Shown here: one piece after another, positions 23,139 to 58,700 of the stretch
How positions within the stretch are numbered: position 1 is the first letter of the stretch
Layout of the letters: each line of letters begins with the position of its first letter
Source of the DNA: Protoeuglena noctilucae
Lineage: Eukaryota
Assembly (NCBI GenBank): GCA_958009085.1
Contig: OY253676.1
Coordinates: 620,001 to 684,000, forward strand
Length of the DNA: 64,000 nucleotides
Direction: 5' to 3'
Notes under the pieces: model-generated
What the model saw: the letters and a program-made list of their open reading frames with translations, nothing else
What the model was told of the DNA's origin: nothing
Databases searched by the model: none
Translations under genes and position numbers: made by a program

Positions 23139-26100
23139 CCGCCTTGAGGGACATTAGCATGACCTCCACGGTCGGATCCGTGCGGAAGTCCTCGAGGGCC
23201 TTGTCGCGCTGCGCCACGGTCATGGAGCCGTCCAGGCGGCGGAAGCGGAAGCCGGCCTGGGTCAGGGGCACCTCCACCAAGTCCAGCATCGACGTCCACT
23301 GGGAGAACACGATGGCCTTGCTCGGGGGCTTGCCGCCGGCCGCCCCGGGGCCGCCGGGGGCAGAGGAGGGAGCGTGGGCGCCGGGGGGAGGCGGCGGGAG
23401 CTTCCGCATCGCGCCGGCAAGCCGAGCCGCGCTTTTGGCCCGAGGGGGCGCGCGGGCGGGCGCGCCCGGGCCCGCGATCGCACCGGCGCCCGCGGCGCGG
23501 CCGTCCTCGCCCGGCGCACCGGCGCGGCCGCCCGAGCGCATGCGCCTCAGGATGCTGAGGAGCTCGCGCATCTTGGCGGAGAGCTCCAGGGGCTGGGGCG
23601 CGAGGGCCGACGCCGGGGCGGACGCGTCGGCGGCGGCGCGGGTGGCGGCGGGCTCGGCGGCGGCCTCCACGGCGGCCGAGGGGAGGAGCTCCGCGGCGTG
23701 GAGCGGCGCGCCGCACGTGGGGCACGGGAAGGCCGCGTCGGCGCTGGCGGTGGAGCCCCCCAGGGAGGTTGCCGCACACTGCTCGCAAAAGACGTGGGCG
23801 CACCGAGCCGCCAGGGGATCCTCGGCGACGTCGCCGCACACGGCGCACTGCGCGGGGACCTGCCGGAGCGCTGCCGCCATGCGCGAGAGGGTGCCGGCGG
23901 GGAGCTTGCGTGCGGCGCGGGTGGCGGTCGCGAGGTCCTTCCCGTTCACGCGCGATTTGCGCAGGTGCGGGGGAGGGGCCGCGAGCCAGGGGTGGTCGCA
24001 ACACTGCCTGCGAGAGGGACGCCGGGCGGGCGGCGGGGTTGCTCTCCCACCCACCTCTGGGCCGCGGTGCTGGCTACTGCGCTCGACGTGAGCTGCGCCC
24101 TGCCAAAGAAAACAACGCTTAGCAACTTCACCTGAGCCGGAGCATGAGGAGGAGCATGTTGGCGTACGAGTTGCCGCTCCCATACGCGGCGAGGTCCCGT
24201 ATGCGGGCCTGGGAGTCCGACAGGATGTCCTGGTAAGCGCGCTGCTCCCCGTCGGTGGGATCGCAGAGCACCCGGCGGGTGGTGCGCGGCGGGAGCGGCA
24301 CGATGGGCTCTCCGTCGATGCGCGTGGCCTTAGTGCGGCGCAGGACGACGCCCTGGAGGATGGCGGACAGACGGCGCATGCCCAGCGTCGGGTCGGCGGA
24401 GATGGGGTCGCGGACCAGGGAGCGGAACGACGAGGGGTCGCTGTAGGGCTCGAGGCGAAGGAACGAGAAGAAGCTCTGCGGTGGCGGAGGCGGCCAGAAG
24501 CGATCAGACAGTCCTAGGCTCTCACGCGTGAGGCGGTCCGAAGTTGCCGTGCTGTGAGATGCTGATGATGATCCGACAGGCAAGACAACAGTTCTGCACC
24601 GCGTTGCGCACGGACGACAGTCCACGCCGGGTCCCTCCCTCACCTGCAGCTCGTCGACGCTGTTCTGGATGGGCGTCCCCGAGAGGCACCACCGGTGCTC
24701 GGCGCGCAGGGCGCACGCGGCGCGGGACACGAGCGTCTTGGGGTTCTTGATGAGCTGCGCCTCGTCGAGGATGACGCGAAACCATTGAAGGGAGAAGAGG
24801 AGGTCCGGGCGACTCGCACCCGCGCCCCCCCGGCCCCGCCCGCCCCGGCCGCGCCCCCCGCCGCGGCCCCCAGCCCCCGCGCCGCCCGTCTGCCCCGACG
24901 CCTGCTCCGCGGACCGCGAGCGCGCGCCCTCGTGGGGCAGCTGCTGCGTCAGGATCGAGTAGGTCGTGATGACCACGTCGTACTTGGACAGCCTCGCCTC
25001 GTCCGTCATCCGGGACGCCCCGTGGTAGATGTACGCGGACAGACCCGCGGAAAAGGACACCTTGTCGCGGAACTCCTGTAGCCACTGCTGCAGCACCGTC
25101 GTCGGGCACACCACCAGGGTGCCCGCCCGCCGGCACCCCTCCGCACCCCACCCCTCGCTGCTCGTCCCGTCCGACGTCGCACGGGAGGCCACGAGGACCT
25201 CGCTCGCGCCGCCCCGGCGCGCAGGGCCCCTCCGATCTTCCACCGCAGAGGCACGCGCACCCGCACCCGCCCCCGCACCAGCGCCCGCAACCCCGCCGCG
25301 CGCGCCCTTCACCACCACGACGTCCTCCGAGGACCCGTCCTTGCCCGCGACAATCTCCACGCTCCCGGGCGTGCCGGAGTCCCCGTCCTCAGCGCCGCCC
25401 TTGAGGCGCTTGGCCGCCCGCCCCGTGCCCTCCGCCGGCTCCCCGTCGCCCCCGCCGCCCTTGCCGCCGCGCCGCCGGACCGACCCCGGACCCCCGCCCC
25501 GCCCCTCGGCCGTGCTGGGCACCGTCGCGACCGACGCAGACATCGACTCGACCTCACCCTCGGGCGCCGACGCCGCGGAAAACTCCTCCGTGGGCCGACG
25601 CCCGTCCGCGTGGCCGGTGACGGGGCCCGGGGGGCTCCCGTCGCCGTCCCCAGGCCCGGACGGCCCCAGGTTGGGCCACCCAGGGCTGCGGTCCGCCCTG
25701 CCACCGCAAGACGCTCCCTCAGGCCCCAGGCCGGCGACCCCGGCCCCGCCCTCCACCGCCCCGTGGGACGGCGTACCCTCGCTGTGGGAGCACTCCCGCC
25801 GAAGCGGCCCCGTGCCCTTGCGCCAGTCGGGAGGCGGCCGGTGGGTCACCACCACAGCCAACGCGGTGACCGTCTTGCCCAGGCCCTGGTCGTCGGCGAG
25901 GATGCCGCCCCTGGAAGCGCGACAGAAGCAACGCGGGGCTCAGCAGCGCATCACGCGGGATGCCCCCCACCACAGCTCAGGCGTGAAGGCCATGCACTGC
26001 CCAAATGCTCCGTACCGCATGCGTGCCTCCCTGCCACCGTTCACGGGTGCAGGGTGCCTCACCTGGGGTACCCGTGGACCTCCTTCTGGACCATCCACGC

Positions 26101-42139: not shown

Positions 42140-44034
42140 CTAGCGGTCGACCTCCCCGAACACGATGTCCTGCGTGCCGATGATGGTCACCACGTCGGCC
42201 AGCATGTGCCCCTGCGCCATCATGTCCAGGCCCTGCAGGTGGTAGAACCCCGGCGCGCGGATCTTGCACCGGTACGGCCTGGACGTCCCCGTGGACACCA
42301 GGTAGACCCCGAACTCCCCCTTGGGCGCCTCCACGGCCCGGTACACCTCCCCCGGGGGAACGACCATGCCCTCCGTGTGCAGCTTGAAGTGGTGGATGAG
42401 CGACTGCAGCCACAGCGACGATGCCGAGATTTTTCAAATGCAAAAGACGTGTCTGCCCGCCAGTCATGTGCTCCCCATGCTCGGCGCAGGCGTAAGGGCC
42501 GTGCCACGCCTCGCGTCGGCCGCGGGACGCGGGACGTCCTCTCACCTCCATCGACTGCTTGGTCTGCTGCCGCGACGGCGGCACAATCTTCCTGTCGTCG
42601 ACGCGCACCGGGCCCGTGGGCATCTCGTTCAGGCACTGCGTCAAGGGCGGCGGACGCATGAGCAGCCGAGAGAGCGCAGCAGCACGACCAGGAGCCCGCC
42701 CCCCGCCGGCTCGGCGCCCACCTGCATGATGATGCGCAGGCACTCGCGCATCTCCTGCGTCCGGCACAGGTAGCGGTCGTAGCAGTCGCCCCGCGTCCCC
42801 AGCGGGACGGCGAACTTCATGCGGCCGTAGACCTCGTAGGGCGTGTTCTTGCGGACGTCGTAGTTGACGCCCGACCCGCGTGCCATGACGCCCGTGAAGC
42901 CGTTCGCCATGGCCTCCTCGGCCGTGACCACGCCGATGTCGACCGTACGCTGCTTCCTGCGTGGCACAGGCGGGGCGCAGCCAGCTCGCCGCCAGTCCCA
43001 AGCAGGCAGCCGGGCGCCTTCTAGCCGCAACCGCGACTCACCAGATGCGGTTGTTGGTGATCATCTCCTCCATGTCGTCCACGCGCGAGGCGAACTGCGC
43101 GGCGAACTTGTAGATGTCCTCGCAGAGGCCCAGGGGCAGGTCCTGCGCGACGCCGCCGGGGCGGATGTAGGCGGCGTGCATGCGCGCCCCGGAGACGCGC
43201 TCGTAAAACTCCATGAGCTTCTCCCTCTCCTCGAAGCCCCAGAGGAAGGGCGTGAGGGCGCCCACGTCCATCGCGTGGCAGGTGAGGGCGAGCAGGTGGT
43301 TCATGATGCGCGTGAGCTCGGAGAACAGGACGCGGATGTACTGCGCGCGAAGCGGGACCTCCGTGCCCAGGAGCTTTTCGATGGCCATCGAGTAGGCGTG
43401 CTCCTGCACCATCATCGACACGTAGTCGAGCCGGTCGAAGTAGGGGAGGCCCTGCGGGTCAGGGACGGGCGGTAGCGTGGCACGGTGCAGCTCACAGCCG
43501 GGGAGAGGCCCGCGGGGGCGCCGGCCAGGCTGCGGGGCACCTGCACAAACGTCTTGTACTCCATCAGCTTCTCCGTGCCGCGGTGAAGCAGCCCGATGTG
43601 CGGATCCGCGCGGTTGATGACCTCGCCGTTCATGTCCAGCACAAGACGCAGCACGCCGTGCGCGGCAGGGTGCTGCGGCCCAAAGTTGATCGTGAAGTTC
43701 TTGGCCTCCGTCGCCACCTCCAGGGGCGCCTCCCTCGCGCGCGCCGGCGCCGATCCCGTCACGGCGCGCCCAGGAAGCCTGTCAGACCCTGCGCCCCCCA
43801 AGACCTGCCCCAGAACGCCCGCCTCAAGCCCTCCCTGCGCGCAAGGCCATGCTCGGGCAGCGTGGAGGCCGCAGCGGGCCCCTCGCGGCCCCACGCCGAG
43901 CGCTCCTGGGACTATAGCGTCATAAGAGCAGAGGGAAGATGCGCTACCGCGAATTTGCGGGCCCCGCGCACCTGCCCAGCCCCCCACGCGCGCCGCAGGC
44001 CCCCGACGGCCGCGACCAGGGCCCTGCGCGACAT
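42140..44034 (-). CDS. NAD7: NADH:ubiquinone oxidoreductase 49-kDa subunit (Nad7/NDUFS2), nucleus-encoded with presequence
   Basis: [71 protein letters not shown] and DIVFGEVDR. Spliceosomal introns present; presequence [17 protein letters not shown]. Confidence 0.97.
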
Positions 44035-44318
44035 CCGGCCCACCCTCAGCACCAAACGATCCGCAAAGAGACAGAGTCTGGTCCAATGAGCGACGATGGG
44101 AGCCCTACCAGGCGGGAGTGGCTGGAAATGGTTTGGCCCGCAACGACCTCTGGATGTCGGCTCCACCCGGGAAGATGGCGTGGCAAGAATATGGTGGGTT
44201 GTTTCCTCAGAAGCAGTGGATTCCCCGTCGGGCTGACGGGCGCAAGTAGGGTAACGCGTTCTTCCTTGCGCCCGCCTCCCCGCGCCCTGCGACCCGGCCC
44301 CAGTAAAAGAGGGCAGAG
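44035..44318. promoter_or_regulatory. Putative bidirectional promoter (NAD7 <- -> C19orf53-like/NDUFA8)
   Basis: 284-bp interval between divergent start codons, less GC-rich than the flanking CDS. Confidence 0.55.
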
Positions 44319-45059
44319 ATGGCACAGAAACCGATTTTCAAGTCGGGGAAGAAGGCGAAGAAGGAAGCGCCCGCTCCGAAGCGTCTCTCGGCCCGGGCTG
44401 CCAAGACAAAGAAAGGTGCGGTTTCAGGACTCGTCTCCATGGCTGCAGCCGAGCGGGGATGGGCTGGGCCGGTGGCTGGGGCGACCAGCGCTCGCCGTTC
44501 TGGGCGCAAACCGCTGTTGGGGGGTCTGGTGAAACGGCGTGCTTTCGCTTAGCTGCACCTGTGCACATCGGGGTGGGGGCGACTGCCTGTGGGCCTCTCG
44601 TAGCGAGGGGGTTGACGCCCGTGATGCTCCCGCGTGGCTGCTCCGCCCGCGCGCGATCCCGCTCTCGTGCCATGCCCATATGACCTCCCTTGAATGATGT
44701 CCAGTCGTCTGATTGCAGGAGCGCCGTCCAAGCCCCCCAAGGACGCCAAGGTGAAGGAGCTTTTCGTGGAGGAGCAGAAGATCACCAAGCTCGTCAACGC
44801 GCGGAACGAAAACCTCCACGCGGCTCTGGCAGGTGATGCCTTATGGCTTTGTCGATGCGCCTGGGGGATGCGCTGGGTGGAGGGCCGGGAGGGTGAGCGT
44901 AGGCGTGGCACTCTGCACACAGTCAGCAGTGGGGCGCAGCTGGGCGTGGTGAAGCCTCCGGCGGACGACTTCGTGGTGACGCGAAAGAGCAAGAAGACGC
45001 TGGGCGATCTCAAGGCGGCCATCCAGGGTGGCGCGCTGCCCGCGAAGAAGACGCAGTGA
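44319..45059 (+). CDS. UPF0390 / C19orf53 (Leydig cell tumor 10-kDa protein)-like basic protein, 3 exons, ~115 aa
   Basis: Exons 44319-44415, 44719-44832 and 44923-45059 give MAQKPIFKSGKKAKK...KTKKGAPSKPPKDAKVK...KITKLVNARNE...GAQLGVVKPP...*, matching the family pattern (MAQG..KF, KKG..IAPKK, L....E....A....L..VK). Confidence 0.7.
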
Positions 45060-45061
45060 TC

Positions 45062-45594
45062 ATGTCCAAGGCCGAGGGGGTGGCGCCGCCGCCCAGCGCG
45101 GCGCTCTTCGCGGTCTGGGAGCACCTGGAGCGGAAGTGCAAGGCTGCTAACTCGGGTGCGTCCGCGCCTCGCTTCCTGCGGGCCCGCGCTGGCATGCTCG
45201 ACAGCGCTAGATACGACACGCCACCCCTGCCGCCCGCAGCCTTCATGCGGTGCAAGAAGGAGAAGCGCGACCCGTCGCTTTGTCTGGCGGAGGGGCAGGC
45301 CGTCATGGACTGTTCCTACAGCCTCATCTCGGACCTCCACCGCAAGGCACCCGCGGAGTTCGACGAGTACGCCTACGTGAGCTCTTGATGCCGCGTGTGC
45401 CAGGGACAGGCACGAGGTCCTGCGCTGCCCACGCGCTGACGGGCGGCTTGCTCCCCCCGCAGTGCCTGTGGTACAATTCGAACAAGCTGACCAAGTGCCG
45501 GAAGGAGGAGAAGGCGTTCAAGGAGAAGTGCAAGCCAGCGGACGCCGGGCCCGACCCGCGCGCGGTGGTGGCGGCCGCGTCGCCGCGCGAGTGA
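45062..45594 (+). CDS. NDUFA8: Complex I accessory subunit NDUFA8 (PGIV/19 kDa, CX9C protein), 3 exons
   Basis: PPSAALFAVWEHLERKCKAANSAFMRCKKEKRDPSLCLAEGQAVMDC...FDEYAYCLWYNSNKLTKCRKEEKAFKEKC, with CX9C spacing. Confidence 0.92.
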
Positions 45595-45688
45595 GGCGCA
45601 GAAATAGGAAAATGCTCTGCCCCTACTCTCGCCATGCCCATCCAAGCCGCTTTTGCGCGGAGCGGCTACGTTGAAACACCCGGCGCAC

Positions 45689-47297
45689 TCAAGCGGCGCG
45701 CAATGCCTTGCGCTCCTCGAACCTGGCGTAGAGCTCTCGCAAGGATTGCGTTGCGTCCTGACCCTTGAGCACCTCGCGGGACTTGCTGGCACCCAGGGCG
45801 TCCGCGATGCGGAGCCACTGGCTCGACCCAAACACGTTGTTCGCAAAGCGGAGCAAGACGGACGCGCTTTTGCTCACGGCACCAGGGAAGGCTCGGAAGA
45901 GGTACTTTTCCGAGCCAGCGAGGGCCTGGTACCTGCAAACGAGCCCGATGGGCGTATGTCAGGATGGGCCGGAGTAAAAGCAGGGACCCTGAGCGGCACA
46001 GAGTCATACGCACCGGATGTTGGAGGACACGCCCATGAAGAACAACCACCCGAGGCCTGTCAGGATGGGGTCCTGCATCGTGGCTGGCGGCACAAACGCC
46101 GGGTCGAGAGCCTCCTTCAGGTCTGTCAGGCGATGCACCACCTGCGTGGAACGTGCTGCGCTCGTATACGTGTCCAAGCGGCACGCCCGCCAAAGCCACT
46201 GCACCTCGGCACGCGTTGAGCCGCACCTGCGTGCCCGTGTAGCCCATCACCGCCCCCGTGAACGCATACAGGACGCCCTTGTAGACGAGGCACCCGAGCT
46301 TGGACGCGATTGAGCTGGGCTCGAAGACGTTGGCGGGGAGGCGGGCGAGGGCGGCCCCGAGCCCCGTCGCAGGGCGCGCCACGCCGACCGTGGGCGCCAG
46401 CATAGACACGAGGGCCACGTCGCACAGCAGCGAGACGGTCAGGTGACACAGCACGAACTCGATCTCGTGCAAGAAGCGCGATCCTCGCGCCGCCATGTTC
46501 ACCCCGACAATGATGACGGCGTCGTTCCCGCACTCGGCCACGAGCTTGAAGAAGAAGTGTGGGTCGGCGCGAGACCTCGCCGTGACGTAGCCCGCGACCG
46601 CAGCGACCACAGCCGACACCGGGCCGCCCCCAGCCCCGCCTCCGCCTCCGCCCCCGCCGCCCCAGCGCCACCGGTTGCGCCCCGCCCCCCCGCCCCCAGG
46701 TCCTCCAGCCCCCGCGTCCAGCAACGGGCTACCCACATACTTCTCCCCTTGAATGGCGCCGTAGACCGCAGAGGCGGGCGCCGTTCCTGAGCCCTGGGAG
46801 CTCCCCGCGCGCTCAGTCTGCGGGGCTGCAGTGCCGATATCCAATGGCGCCTCCGTGCGCTCCACGGGCGCGCTGGTCCCCACGCTATCCAGGCTGCACG
46901 TGATCTGCAGTCAGGTGGCAGATACTGATCGATAAGGGCACGTGCGTCAGCGCGCGGGCCGCCGGGCCGCGGGGTGGCATGTGGCACCTCGGACACCTCA
47001 GCAGAGGCAGCGCGGGACACGCTCCTCGCCAAGGCAAGTCCGAGATGAATTTACTCAGCGCTTTCATGCATTCGGCATCAACACCTCCGCCCCTGACTCG
47101 CAGTGCGGCAAAACGGGCCCGCGCACTCCGAAGTGCGCACACGGTCCCCAACGCACCTGACTGCGCCCTCTCCGTGTCCTCCGAGGTGCCCTAGATGGCA
47201 CTGCGCTCTGAAATGTTGCTAAGGATCGCCCGCATCGACAGGAGGCGTTCCCCACTCTCGCGGGCAGGGAGTGCGGCGCCTTGATCACCGCGCCCAT
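45689..47297 (-). CDS. RETICULATA-related (DUF3411) plastid envelope protein
   Basis: Transit peptide, poly-Gly stretch, ARSRADPHFFFKLVAECGND, DVALVSMLAPT, LPANVFE, FMGVSSNIRYQ and LRFANNVFGSSQW. Confidence 0.9.
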
Positions 47298-55530: not shown

Positions 55531-55765
55531 GATCGACCAGCGTGCTGCGCCTGTTCAAGTCGCAAGTTCTACGCCGCAGCCGTACCCTGTCTTCGTCATA
55601 TGTCTCTCTAAGCACCTCTGCTTGCGCCTTGCGCCTGGTGCTGCGCCGATTCAACTTCACCTGTCGAACGCACAGTTTGACAAACGTGCTGCGGCGTTTC
55701 TCACGAAGCAAACCCCAACAGCAACGCGACGTGCTTGTCCTGTCGCTAGCGCAAGACGAGGTTCC

Positions 55766-58700
55766 TCATTCCACGTCCACAGCGTCCCGCAGCGCCCGCG
55801 CCAGCACCCGCGATACCAGCCGGCGGTTGAGCTCCGGCAGCACCTCCCGTGCCACGGTGGGCAGCAGCGGCCCCACCTCCCGCAGCAGCTCCGAGTCCAG
55901 GCGCGAGACCCCGCCCGCCACGCCCGCACCGCCCGTCAGGAAGCCGACGATCTGCGTGGGGCAGAGAAGGGCGTCTGATATCAGAAGGGGGCTCGATCCT
56001 GTAAATACCTTGCAACTATCGTCGCCAGTTGCAACCGTCACTACCCAGGTGCCCTTGGCACCGAGTTCCCTCACCTTCTCGACGTTCTCGACGTGCTTCC
56101 GGTCCTCCTCCGTCACCTCCGGCGCCAGCGGCAGCAGCGGCTTCACGCCCGGCAGCAGCACGGGCACCAGCACCGCCTCCACCCCCAGCGCAGCCGCCAC
56201 CCGCCTCGCGCTGTCGCGGGACAGGGAGTCCACGCTCTTGACAGCCTCGTCCAGGAGAAAGTCGCGGAAGAAGGAGCCCTCGGGCGACAGCACGAACTTG
56301 AGGGCCTCCCTGGCGCCCCCAGGGCCGGCGGGCCCGGTCGGGGTAGCGGTGACGCTTGCAGCAGCGGGGCTGAGGGGCCAGGCTGGGGCCGAGGGGCCCG
56401 CAGAGGGGACGGGGAAGGGCGGGAAGGGGAAGGGTGGGAGCGGGAGGGGCAGGGTGAAGGGGAAGGGTGCGCCCTCAAATGTGGCGGGGGTGGGGAAGGG
56501 AAGCGGCGCGGAGGGGCCCGGTGCGGGGAGCGGGAAGGGGAAGGGGGAGGAGGGAGCGGGGAAGGGGGTGGATGGGGTCGAGGGGCGAGGGTCCGCAGGT
56601 GTAGTGGATCGTGTGGGTTGGGAAGTAGGGGCGGCGGGGGCGGTCGTGGAGAGGTCGCCCAGGGCGGTGCGGGAGTTGGTCTTGAAAGTCTCAAACGCTT
56701 TCTGTGGGGAGGATAAGGGGTGGGTTATGAGTGGGGTTGATGAGCGGGGCAATGTGTGGGGTGGTGTGTGGGGTGATGTGTGGGCGAGACGGTGTGGAGA
56801 GATGGACAGCACGATGCTGCAAACCTAGTGCATGCATCTTTGGCGCTCACCAAAATGTCGATTAGCCTCTCTGCGTCAAACACGCCCTCCTTTCCGTAGA
56901 CCATGTACCTCAGCGCCGCCTGGATGCGGGGGGAGTTGTTGGTGAGGAGCATCTTGGAGATGTAGGGGTAGGCCTCATCGATGATGGCGAAGTTGGGGTT
57001 GGGGACCAAGGCGATGCCCTCCAAGACCCCGATGGCGCGGATGATGAGGGCGAAGTAGGGAGGGATGCTGGGGGTAGGGGGGGGGGGGGGGGCGGGGAGG
57101 GGTGGAGTGTGCAGGAGGTGGGGTGGGAGGGGTGAGAGGGGTGGGGCATGGGTGGCTGCATGGACATTGCAAGGTCGTCATCGCTACCAATACTGGGCAG
57201 CTTGTATCTGAGTCGCCCTCACTGGAAGGGGTAGTCGAAGGTGATTTGCTCAAGGAGCTTGTGGTATCACAGTAACCAATATTGGTTAACTACATCTTAG
57301 TCGCCCTCACCGGAAGGGGTAGTCGAAGGTGATTTGCGCGAGGTCGGCGGCGAGGTCGTTGAAGTTGATTCCCTTGGCGCCCCCTCCCTGCAGCGCCTGG
57401 TCAAAGACCTTGGCCAGCACCGGCTTGATGGGGCGCAGGTCGGTGCCGCGGGGGATGAACTGAAGCGTCACGAAGTCGTCTAAGATGGCGTCGTAGTCTG
57501 CAGCAGAAAAGGGGGATGATGGGGTGAGTGAGTGAGTGAGTGAGTGAGTGAGTCGTCTAAGATGGCGTCGTAGTCTGCAGCAGAAAAGGGGGATGATGGG
57601 GTGAGTGAGTGAGTGAGTGAGTGAGTGAGTCGTCTAAGATGGCGTCGTAGTCTGCAGCAGAGAAGGGGTGAGAAAGTGAGTGGGTGAGGGCAAAGAGGTG
57701 ATGAGGTGGGATGGGTGATGGCCTCTGAGCATCTCACACACTACTCAAAACTTTGCACGGTCCCATTAACGTCGCATCAATTCCACTCCCGCTTACACAC
57801 CTCGGTGGATGAGGTGGGAGATGGCCTCGATCATGCCGTACTTGATCTCATCATCCACAGGGGTCATCAGGCCAAAGTCCAGAATCGCCAGGCGGCCGTC
57901 GGGGGTGCGGATGAGGTTGCCGGGGTGAGGGTCTGCGGACGCAGGACTGACGCAGCACTCGTCTACAGCTGCATAGCAAAACCTGCCGCCAGCCAGCCCA
58001 GCGCAAACCCCTCCAGCCCCTACCCCCCTCCCCTCGCTCTCGAACCCTACCCTCCACGCCCTTCCCACACACACCCCGCACCACCACCCCCTCCCCTCTC
58101 AGCCCCTACCCCCCTTGCACACCCCCTCCCTTCCCCGCCCTCCCCGCACCGCACACCCCGTCCCCCATCACCCTCCCCTAACAACCCCTCCCCCCCCCCG
58201 CTCACCAGCGTGGAAGAACCCCGTGTCGAGTAGCTGCTTTAAGTAGCATATGACGCCCACGTTGACGAGGTCGCCGACATCCGACGCCGACGACTGCGCG
58301 AGCTTCTCTCCGTCCAGCCACTCGGTGCAGAGCACGCGGCGGCGCGTGTAGTCCATGAAGGTGCGGGGGACCACCACCTGGGGGAGAGGGTGGGGGGGTG
58401 AGGGAGTGGGGTGGGGGAAGGAAGGGGGTGGGGGATAGGGAGTGGAGGGAGAGGAATGGGGAAGCGGGGGTAAGGGAAGGGGGGTCGAGGGGCGTTGGAC
58501 TGGTGGACACCAATAGTGTGAAAGTAAACAATCAAACTCATCTATGTAGTTGTCAGCAACCTCGTCCGCGTCTCTGCCCCTCCCTCCCTCACCTGCGGCA
58601 GGTCCTTGGCCATCTGCTGGGCGAACACCGTGGCGTTGTTCCCCTCCTTCACGTAGTCGAGCTCCTCGAAGAATCGAAGCGCCCACTCGTCCAAAAGAGC

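Follow-up and report, generated by a model that had tools for sequence, protein, structure and literature searches.

A putative bicistronic nuclear locus pairing a DUF2462 gene with the complex I subunit gene NDUFA8 in a marine green alga

In the window, by which we mean the whole 64,000-nucleotide stretch of DNA analyzed here, two small genes lie on the plus strand so close together that the stop codon of the first (TGA, 45057-45059) is followed after two nucleotides by the start codon of the second (ATG at 45062; junction sequence acgcagTGAtcATGtcc). A spacer of this size cannot accommodate a 3′ UTR, a poly(A) site or a promoter. On balance, we favor a conserved bicistronic locus of the nuclear genome, in which a single mRNA carries a DUF2462 reading frame (ORF1) and an NDUFA8 reading frame (ORF2), the latter being reached by leaky scanning. 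An earlier note on this DNA had described the two-nucleotide gap and proposed a bicistronic mRNA. The gap is confirmed on the sequence, and the proposal is supported by the family identities of the two proteins, by RNA contigs that cross the spacer in three runs from two studies, by conservation in a relative and by purifying selection on ORF1. The locus (with RNA runs designated X9, X10 and X14 and a relative locus designated L001) is laid out as follows.

43972..44162, minus strand: first exon of the divergent upstream gene NDUFS2 (complex I 49-kDa subunit), with its ATG at 44034
44192..44318, plus strand: ATG-free stretch ahead of the ORF1 initiator, the nearest upstream ATG being at 44191; likely holding the 5′ leader and promoter
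44319..44415, plus strand: exon 1 of ORF1 (DUF2462 / C19orf53-like), initiator context gagggcagagATGGC; RNA joint 44413/44717 (cut +2) in X10
44416..44718, plus strand: ORF1 intron 1, 303 nt, GT..AG, with 7 ATGs inside
44719..44832, plus strand: ORF1 exon 2, from RNA contigs and identity to P0002
44833..44922, plus strand: ORF1 intron 2, 90 nt, GT..AG, in frame and open, with 4 ATGs; RNA joint in X9 and X10
44923..45059, plus strand: ORF1 exon 3, closing with the TGA
45060..45061, plus strand: spacer (tc), 2 nt between the ORF1 stop and the NDUFA8 start
45062..45155, plus strand: NDUFA8 exon 1, initiator context cgcagtgatcATGTC; X9, X10 and X14 contigs unbroken across 45057-45064
45156..45239, plus strand: NDUFA8 intron 1, 84 nt, GT..AG; joint in X9, X10 and X14; missing from L001
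45240..45376, plus strand: NDUFA8 exon 2, from the spliced frame and RNA contigs
45377..45462, plus strand: NDUFA8 intron 2, 86 nt, GT..AG; missing from L001
45463..45594, plus strand: NDUFA8 exon 3, closing with TGA at 45592-45594; weak Pfam CHCH match
45595..45840, plus strand: region downstream of the NDUFA8 stop, covered by the spliced X10 contig and overlapping the 3′ end of the convergent gene; probable 3′ UTR
45689..46910, minus strand: RETICULATA-like gene, convergent downstream (Pfam PF11891, 3.1e-22)

Joined, the three ORF1 exons form an in-frame sequence of 348 nt encoding 115 amino acids and a stop, and the three NDUFA8 exons form one of 363 nt encoding 120 amino acids. The ORF1 exon borders are those of the earlier note, which gave none for NDUFA8; the ORF1 borders are borne out by GT..AG boundaries, by RNA joints and by the database protein P0002, which equals the spliced ORF1 translation letter for letter. 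Judged from sequence comparison, ORF1 is a genuine DUF2462 family gene and ORF2 a genuine member of the NDUFA8 (PGIV) family. P0002 scores 32.0 bits against the Pfam model DUF2462 (PF09495; UPF0390, C19orf53/L10K), for which the gathering cut-off is 23, and its residues 1-84 match model positions 1-76 of 77. A family search returned 27 proteins at E <= 0.001, the query and the window's own pieces included, and a further family member, P0012, bears the UniRef name “Leydig cell tumor 10 kDa protein homolog.” Seventeen ORF1-family clusters were looked up; the five that carry organism names all belong to Chlorophyta (Pedinophyceae sp., Symbiochloris, Myrmecia, Botryococcus and Auxenochlorella). 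Together with the RETICULATA-like neighbor, these point to a green alga as the host. A PDB sequence search with ORF1 gave a chance-level match only (E 0.075), and Pfam found no match when the translations of ORF1 and NDUFA8 exons 1-2 still contained intron sequence. The ORF1 protein is lysine-rich. It is also disordered and highly charged.

For ORF2, the database protein P0036 equals spliced NDUFA8. The related gene call P0004 aligns with the NDUFA8 chains of plant complex I from Vigna and Arabidopsis (6x89_A8, E 7.2e-22 over residues 6-103; 7a23_Y, 2.4e-21), and all seven of its cysteines in the aligned stretch pair with cysteines of those chains. An Atlas search also confirmed the family, and NDUFA8 exon 3 taken alone scored 21.3 bits against Pfam CHCH, below the cut-off of 27.2. 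The searches returned no closely related protein with an organism name for either ORF. Bicistronic loci are often mis-annotated, and the gene calls at this one include intron read-through and GTG-start artefacts.

The RNA evidence consists of assembled metatranscriptome contigs, not single molecules, from three runs (X9, X10 and X14) in two studies. Contigs bridge the stop/start junction in all three. In X10, record 2 (955 nt) comprises 44323-44413, 44717-44829, 44920-45154, 45239-45376 and 45463-45840; it joins ORF1 exon 1 to sequence beyond the NDUFA8 stop through four GT..AG joints and is unbroken at the spacer. The spacer is also crossed, with flanks longer than 31 nt on both sides, by X9 record 9 and X14 record 6 (second study). 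All four introns of the locus are thereby verified as RNA joints. Two gene calls on spliced contigs, P0034 and P0004 (VIMSK.../MIMSK...), have the last bases of ORF1 directly before the NDUFA8 ATG. Splicing that fuses the two frames, which the earlier note had named as evidence against its proposal, is absent from the RNA contigs, where the plus-strand joints are the four GT..AG introns of the locus only. We infer that both ORFs reside on the same individual molecules, that NDUFA8 has no transcript of its own, and that both proteins are made.

Several features of the contigs bear on how far they can be read. ORF1 exon 1 is present in a contig from just one of the three RNA runs (X10), and that contig begins at 44323, 4 nt past the ORF1 ATG. 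In addition, the call for P0002 on spliced contigs includes the full N-terminus; the ORF1 AUG would thus be transcribed if these contigs are RNA, as their missing introns suggest. In X9, ORF1 exon 1 is not covered by any contig; the main one begins at 44772, and another lies within ORF1 intron 1 (44430-44663). Gaps in contig cover prove nothing, and those in X9 were counted neither for nor against an internal transcription start site (TSS). X9 record 9 continues into the convergent minus-strand gene, and overlapping transcripts thus do get joined in assembly. Contigs from a further run, X13, are unspliced; X13 is therefore DNA and uninformative on RNA. One aspect of the mRNA was counted against the bicistronic reading. 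The ORF1 stop lies 96 nt 5′ of an exon junction in the window, and two exon junctions lie downstream of it, a layout that would be prone to nonsense-mediated decay (NMD) if the host has EJC-dependent NMD.

The arrangement is conserved in L001, the sole relative locus retrieved and the one confirmed out of 214 pattern matches. The earlier note had suggested synteny as a check, and in this one relative the pair has been kept. Gene order, strand and spacer length are as in the window, the sequence there reading TGA, then gg, then ATG, and the upstream neighbor is again a minus-strand NDUFS2. The ORF1 orthologue retains its exon phases (first exons of 97 and 114 nt), and NDUFA8 is intronless. Between the two loci, 66 of 114 ORF1 residues are identical, with dN/dS of 0.33 at dS 0.96, and NDUFA8 has 83 of 117 identical residues and dN/dS of 0.22. 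The ratio for ORF1 indicates purifying selection on its protein, and both ratios, with the family memberships, are indirect evidence that the two frames are translated. Nucleotide similarity is limited to exons, and one HSP crosses the spacer uninterrupted. A comparison of the window with L001 gave no conserved non-coding block in the introns or in the promoter region, and the promoter is thus not locatable by conservation.

One feature in keeping with leaky scanning to the NDUFA8 start is an upstream region poor in AUGs. In spliced ORF1 the initiator is the only ATG in any frame, which confirms the earlier statement that the NDUFA8 AUG is the next one after it. The 127 nt ahead of the initiator are also free of ATGs, and the mature RNA over 44192-45061 therefore contains none but the ORF1 initiator. 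The spliced ORF1 of L001 has no internal ATG either, and its intron 1 (369 nt) has 4. In the window, the ORF1 introns hold 11 ATGs in 393 nt versus none in 345 exonic nt, which favors depletion. Statistically, the depletion is modest. Base composition predicts 3.6 ATGs in ORF1; mononucleotide shuffles of ORF1 are ATG-free in 2.2-2.4% of cases, and 345-nt windows across the 64-kb window in 2.9-3.4% (1811 and 2139 of 63655). If the protein is taken as Met-free from the outset, codon-order shuffles come out ATG-free in 58% of cases for the window and 90% for L001, and internal Met is absent from 5 of 19 apparently full-length family members. The weight that the earlier note placed on an ATG-free ORF1 was thus too great. 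As for start contexts, read as bare bases, positions −3/+4 are G/G for ORF1 and A/T for ORF2 in the window, and C/C and A/T in L001. The ORF1 context of the window, with G at both positions, is not obviously weak.

These observations are consistent with the following scheme. A promoter region of at most ~156 nt, head-to-head with NDUFS2, would drive one pre-mRNA, which would be spliced four times to give one mRNA with two ORFs. Part of the scanning 43S complexes would initiate at the ORF1 AUG. The remaining complexes would bypass it, meet no further AUG over ~350 nt and initiate at the NDUFA8 AUG. Leaky scanning is proposed here as the route to NDUFA8 by analogy with experiments in Auxenochlorella, Chlamydomonas and Chromochloris. 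If NDUFA8 is indeed read in this way, ORF1 would double as a throttle on NDUFA8 output, and since ORF2 encodes a structural complex I subunit, the supply of that subunit would depend on ribosomes skipping the start codon of another gene.

It is useful to weigh this scheme against other accounts of the same locus. We consider it rather unlikely, if a real possibility, that the locus consists of two transcription units that overlap. The longer transcript would then serve ORF1 only, its NDUFA8 part being untranslated, and NDUFA8 would come mainly from a shorter mRNA with an internal TSS in the ORF1 introns or exons, whose leader would be ATG-free for the same reason. Contigs cannot reveal starts, ends or levels of transcripts, ORF1 intron 1 could hold a promoter given its length (303 nt, and 369 nt in L001, versus 84-90 nt for the other introns of the window), and selection for ATG-free ORF1 exons 2-3 is expected under this account too. 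However, a spacing of exactly 2 nt and a strict gene order have been kept at dS ~1, and published loci of this class are exclusively polycistronic by Iso-Seq. The lack of a conserved block in the ORF1 introns also speaks against an internal promoter, although weakly, as the upstream promoter region likewise lacks one. Distinctly less probable, in our judgment, is a bicistronic mRNA on which NDUFA8 is made mainly by termination-reinitiation, with ribosomes that end at the ORF1 UGA restarting at the AUG two bases on. In its favor, stop and start are separated by 2 nt in both species even though the spacer bases differ (tc and gg); Duenas et al. 2025 (PMC11892635) leave room for some reinitiation and note that depletion of AUGs near the ORF1 stop fits it as well. 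According to the same authors, however, reinitiation becomes less efficient as the upstream ORF grows longer and works best when that ORF is a few codons long, whereas ORF1 has 115, and a stronger ORF1 context lowered ORF2 output in reporters, contrary to what reinitiation predicts. Nor does reinitiation have any need of ATG depletion over the whole of ORF1 and its leader.

Two further accounts deny that the locus makes two separate proteins from one mRNA. ORF1 might be non-coding as a gene, serving as a long spliced 5′ leader or a regulatory uORF of a monocistronic NDUFA8 mRNA. The start of the X10 contig, just inside the ORF1 frame, leans this way, but we regard this account as very improbable: P0002 exceeds the Pfam gathering score for DUF2462, the family includes proteins named from five green algae, the low dN/dS and the conserved intron phases indicate a protein-coding orthologue, and the full N-terminus of P0002 on spliced contigs implies that the AUG is transcribed. 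A fusion of ORF1 and NDUFA8 by −1 frameshifting or alternative splicing would be in keeping with the NDUFA8 frame being open through the whole of ORF1 exon 3 in both the window (44903-45388) and L001 (1791-2459). In DNA of 66% GC, however, open frames of this kind are frequent, the spliced ORF1 of the window has no in-frame X_XXY_YYZ slippery heptamer, the plus-strand RNA joints include none beyond the four introns, and NDUFA8 relatives start at the same Met. We give a fusion protein almost no credence.

The locus lies between two close neighbors. NDUFS2 was identified by a PDB phmmer match (9f5x_E, E 5.5e-28) and by Pfam Complex1_49kDa on 42644-43060. Its RNA contigs (43988-44162 in X10; 43971-44120 in X9, with a loose end matching 43804-43833) extend to 44162, which leaves at most ~156 nt available as a shared promoter region. 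On the other side, the last-exon ORF of the RETICULATA-like gene ends ~94 nt from the NDUFA8 stop, and this gene has a minus-strand intron at ~45931-46011 (CT..AC joint in RNA contigs). No TGTAA poly(A) signal occurs on either strand over 44000-47000, though TGTAA may not be the signal of the host lineage. The head-to-head arrangement with NDUFS2, being conserved, hints that two complex I genes may be co-regulated. A more ambitious proposal, which we think quite improbable, is that the locus works as a small module for complex I expression and is no chance packing of genes. In both species, a short bidirectional promoter would serve NDUFS2 on one side and the DUF2462-NDUFA8 messenger on the other, ORF1 would set the amount of NDUFA8 made per transcript, and the ORF1 product would help the cysteine-rich NDUFA8 precursor stay import-competent. 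In a published abstract, human C19orf53 is termed a chaperone-like “Hero” protein. If true, the module would be the first functional link for DUF2462 proteins.

Exclusively bicistronic nuclear loci have been catalogued in green algae (Gallaher et al. 2021, PMC7896298; Duenas et al. 2025, PMC11892635). The earlier note was therefore right that polycistronic nuclear transcripts occur there and that leaky scanning had been proposed as the mechanism; leaky scanning was demonstrated experimentally as the main one in 2025. It overstated the novelty of the locus, since class and mechanism are published and the gene pair alone appears to be new. A keyword search of the supplements of both papers gave no match for a DUF2462-NDUFA8 pair. 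By title or abstract start, a literature search on bicistronic NDUFA8 gave nothing algal, and one on bicistronic Micromonas gave, for green-algal loci, Gallaher 2021 and Duenas 2025 only; a search on NUOA8 in Chlamydomonas had no match. The locus thus adds one example to the established green-algal bicistrons and leaves the overall picture unchanged. The host is a marine alga, known here from metagenome data, and not among the species in which bicistrons were catalogued. With a spacer that is conserved and at the extreme short end, the locus offers a clean natural setting in which to tell leaky scanning from reinitiation.

Comparison with known systems places the locus more precisely. In the class described by Gallaher 2021 and Duenas 2025, ORF1 has median lengths of 291 and 357 nt, and the 348 nt found here fall inside the published range. 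Median inter-ORF distances are 40 nt in Auxenochlorella and 183 nt in Chlamydomonas, colinear monocistronic genes being more than 2,500 nt apart; our 2 nt are very short, and the Auxenochlorella list includes distances of 0-2 nt. Further likenesses are the lack of any AUG between the two starts, colinearity in a relative, and functionally unrelated products, one of them mitochondrial. The differences are the new gene pair, an ORF1 context that is not clearly weak in the window, and knowledge from assembled RNA contigs, as opposed to Iso-Seq for the class.

Individual bicistrons described or cited in the two papers offer further parallels. The TOM22-like/SDHAF3 bicistron (Gallaher 2021), conserved across chlorophytes and also in the Auxenochlorella list, likewise has a small ORF1 followed by a small mitochondrial respiratory protein, the two linked over long evolutionary distances. 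It is a different pair, however, and both of its products are mitochondrial, whereas no mitochondrial role is known for the ORF1 family here. The CDC26-TTM3 bicistron, found in land plants and green algae (Duenas 2025), also places a small ORF1 and an ORF2 unrelated to it on one mRNA, and there the ORF1 stop may expose the mRNA to NMD, countered by translation of ORF2. The genes are others, and for our locus NMD sensitivity would follow from the two exon junctions located after the stop of ORF1. The Drosophila stoned and Snapin bicistrons (cited in Duenas 2025) share an AUG-poor upstream ORF and a downstream ORF reached by leaky scanning, but they come from animals, their genes are unrelated, and their ORFs are much longer. 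Regulatory uORFs resemble ORF1 in that an upstream frame captures part of the scanning ribosomes and sets downstream output; ORF1 differs from them in its 115 codons, its Pfam family and the selection on its protein. Overall, the locus is a member of the known green-algal bicistron class, and by analogy with that class, in which mutational evidence in Duenas et al. 2025 makes leaky scanning the main route, it is probably read by leaky scanning.

ORF1 stops at 45057-45059 and the next ATG, that of NDUFA8, lies at 45062 (...acgcagTGAtcATGtcc...), as an earlier note on this DNA had read the junction. No terminator, poly(A) signal or promoter fits into a 2-nt gap, so an mRNA encoding ORF1 must extend into NDUFA8. 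The same gene pair occurs in L001, a single metagenome locus from a relative, and the genes concerned are these:

Window, 44319-44415, 44719-44832 and 44923-45059, plus strand: ORF1 exons; spliced frame of 348 nt, 115 codons plus stop
Window, 45062-45155, 45240-45376 and 45463-45594, plus strand: NDUFA8 exons; 363 nt, 120 aa
Window, 42644-44162, minus strand: NDUFS2, nuclear, with introns
L001, 1207-1303, 1673-1786 and 1970-2103: ORF1 orthologue, three exons, 114 aa; 66 of 114 residues identical
L001, 2106-2459: NDUFA8, intronless; 83 of 117 residues identical to those of the window
L001, 220-487, minus strand: NDUFS2

In the window, which is 66% G+C, GT..AG is found at all ORF1 exon borders. 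The NDUFA8 frame is open upstream across all of ORF1 exon 3 (window 44903-45388, L001 1791-2459). Automatic callers therefore begin NDUFA8 at a GTG overlapping the ORF1 stop, as in gene calls P0004 and P0034 (spliced NDUFA8 plus two extra residues) and P0038. The ORF1 stop is 96 nt 5′ of the next exon junction, with a second junction beyond (window 45057-45240); L001 has neither. A stop upstream of exon junctions marks an mRNA for decay where NMD is EJC-dependent.

Both gene labels in the earlier note were correct. The open frame spanning ORF1 exons 2-3, used as a protein query, retrieved P0002 (115 aa), identical to spliced ORF1, which scores 32 bits against Pfam DUF2462 (cut-off 23; model positions 1-76 of 77) and is thus C19orf53-like. 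Among 1.84 billion representatives, 27 proteins matched at E up to 0.001, the query and pieces from the window itself included. Five of the 17 ORF1-family clusters looked up are named (Pedinophyceae sp. YPF-701, Symbiochloris irregularis, [Myrmecia] bisecta, Botryococcus braunii and Auxenochlorella protothecoides); because all five are green algae, sequence relationships identify the host, seen here in marine metagenome data, as a chlorophyte. UniRef calls one of these clusters "Leydig cell tumor 10 kDa protein homolog", after the name of the C19orf53 product. For NDUFA8, database protein P0036 matches the spliced product exactly, and P0004 matches NDUFA8 chains in structures of plant complex I (7.2e-22 and 2.4e-21, residues 6-103), each of its seven cysteines in this stretch pairing with a cysteine.

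In four metatranscriptome runs 44-50% of sampled words were present, approximately the exonic share of the stretch. Contigs of four runs (X9, X10, X13 and X14) were aligned to the window. A single 955-nt contig in run X10 (44323-44413, 44717-44829, 44920-45154, 45239-45376, 45463-45840) begins in ORF1 exon 1 and ends 246 nt beyond the NDUFA8 stop, with all four introns spliced out at GT..AG and no break over the 2-nt spacer. Spliced contigs also cross the spacer in X9, from the same study, and X14, from another. Run X13 was rejected as RNA evidence; its contigs are unspliced and represent DNA. One X9 contig extends into the minus-strand gene that converges on NDUFA8, the CT..AC intron of that gene included, so overlapping transcripts do become merged in assemblies. 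The contigs establish exon 1-exon 2 splicing, the contiguity of exon 3 with NDUFA8 and the modelled introns, not the make-up of single molecules or the positions of transcript ends. Spliced contigs that bridge the spacer in three runs support the bicistronic mRNA proposed earlier. A low-depth X9 contig lies entirely within ORF1 intron 1 (window 44430-44663), and gene call P0035 has NDUFA8 without intron 1 and with intron 2 kept; these may reflect RNA from which some or all introns had yet to be removed, or contaminating DNA.

The arrangement is kept in L001 (4321 nt), the one locus confirmed among 214 pattern matches when metagenome contigs were scanned with an alignment of NDUFA8 relatives. 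Its junction reads TGA (2101-2103), gg, ATG, a spacer of exactly 2 nt as in the window. The first two ORF1 exons have equal lengths in both, and spliced ORF1 in L001 has no internal ATG, against four in intron 1 of that gene. At the nucleotide level the two loci resemble each other in exons only, and one unbroken HSP covers the spacer together with the exons that flank it, ORF1 exon 3 and NDUFA8 exon 1. NDUFA8 introns (45156-45239, 45377-45462) are present in the window and absent from L001, which implies intron gain or loss within the group, while ORF1 intron positions are kept. P0033, a third relative's gene call, shows apparent read-through at the same two positions.

The initiator is the sole ATG, in any frame, of spliced ORF1 in the window, as had been claimed; the absence of others agrees in direction with leaky scanning, but it weighs less than the earlier note supposed. 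From base composition, 3.6 ATGs would be expected; 2.2-2.4% of mononucleotide shuffles and 2.9-3.4% of 345-nt segments across the 64-kb stretch lack one. The protein is free of Met, Cys and Trp and its codons are GC3-rich, and so codon-order shuffles are often ATG-free (58% for the window, 90% for L001). Five of 19 apparently full-length family members have no internal Met; six of 25 hits had been set aside as read-through products (two), fragmentary (two), 2962 aa long (one) or of uncertain start (one). Met is naturally scarce in this family, which may explain its tolerance of the ORF1 position. In favor of selection against ATG are the ATG-free leader in both species (975 to 1207 in L001) and the split between ORF1 introns (11 ATGs per 393 nt) and exons (0 per 345 nt), with p ~0.001 by hand if evenly spread, exon and intron composition being different. 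The longest ATG-free plus-strand stretches of the window are 55600-56479 (879 nt) and 25029-25902 (873 nt); the next is 618 nt.

On our analysis, the probable reading is that one spliced bicistronic mRNA bears ORF1 and NDUFA8, the latter being reached by leaky scanning past the ORF1 start. In L001 the bases around the ORF1 start (C at −3, C at +4) make a weak context, but those in the window (G at −3, G at +4) do not clearly do so; position −3 of ORF2 is A in both. An additional internal transcription start site that would supply NDUFA8 mRNA is rather unlikely. Termination followed by reinitiation at NDUFA8, although suggested by the conserved 2-nt spacing, is disfavored by an ORF1 of 115 codons and seems improbable. 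It is very doubtful that ORF1 is a non-coding leader; between window and L001 its dN is 0.32, dS 0.96 and dN/dS 0.33 (0.22 for NDUFA8). As for an ORF1-NDUFA8 fusion, which the earlier note had named as contrary to its proposal, no joint in the aligned RNA contigs fuses the frames, and we regard it as extremely improbable.

Upstream, in the same orientation in window and L001, is NDUFS2, the complex I 49-kDa subunit. Its ATG in the window is at 44034 and RNA contigs extend to 44162, leaving at most ~156 nt between the divergent transcripts. The presence of this divergent neighbor in both loci points, on sequence grounds, to a bidirectional promoter region common to two complex I genes, NDUFS2 and the ORF1-NDUFA8 unit, in both species. 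Downstream, a convergent RETICULATA-like gene ends ~94 nt from the NDUFA8 stop (window 45595-46100). The two 3′ ends probably overlap, since one X9 RNA contig runs through both genes. Intergenic space is very tight in the Protoeuglena noctilucae genome.

The DUF2462-NDUFA8 pair gave no keyword match in the supplements of Gallaher 2021 (PMC7896298) and Duenas 2025 (PMC11892635), does not occur among the curated loci of Dataset S1 or of Dataset S5, part 1, and yielded nothing in literature searches. The gene pair appears new; the class is already known. The locus stands out because ORF2 encodes a complex I subunit, because the spacer is extremely short and of conserved length, and because the head-to-head arrangement with NDUFS2 is kept. 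According to those two papers, green-algal bicistrons have a short ORF1, a short inter-ORF distance, AUG depletion before ORF2 and a weak ORF1 context, and mutations that strengthen that context or add an AUG reduce ORF2 output (Gallaher 2021, PMC7896298; Duenas 2025, PMC11892635). The window locus matches these published sequence features, except that its ORF1 context is not clearly weak. On structural grounds it fits the green-algal bicistron class.
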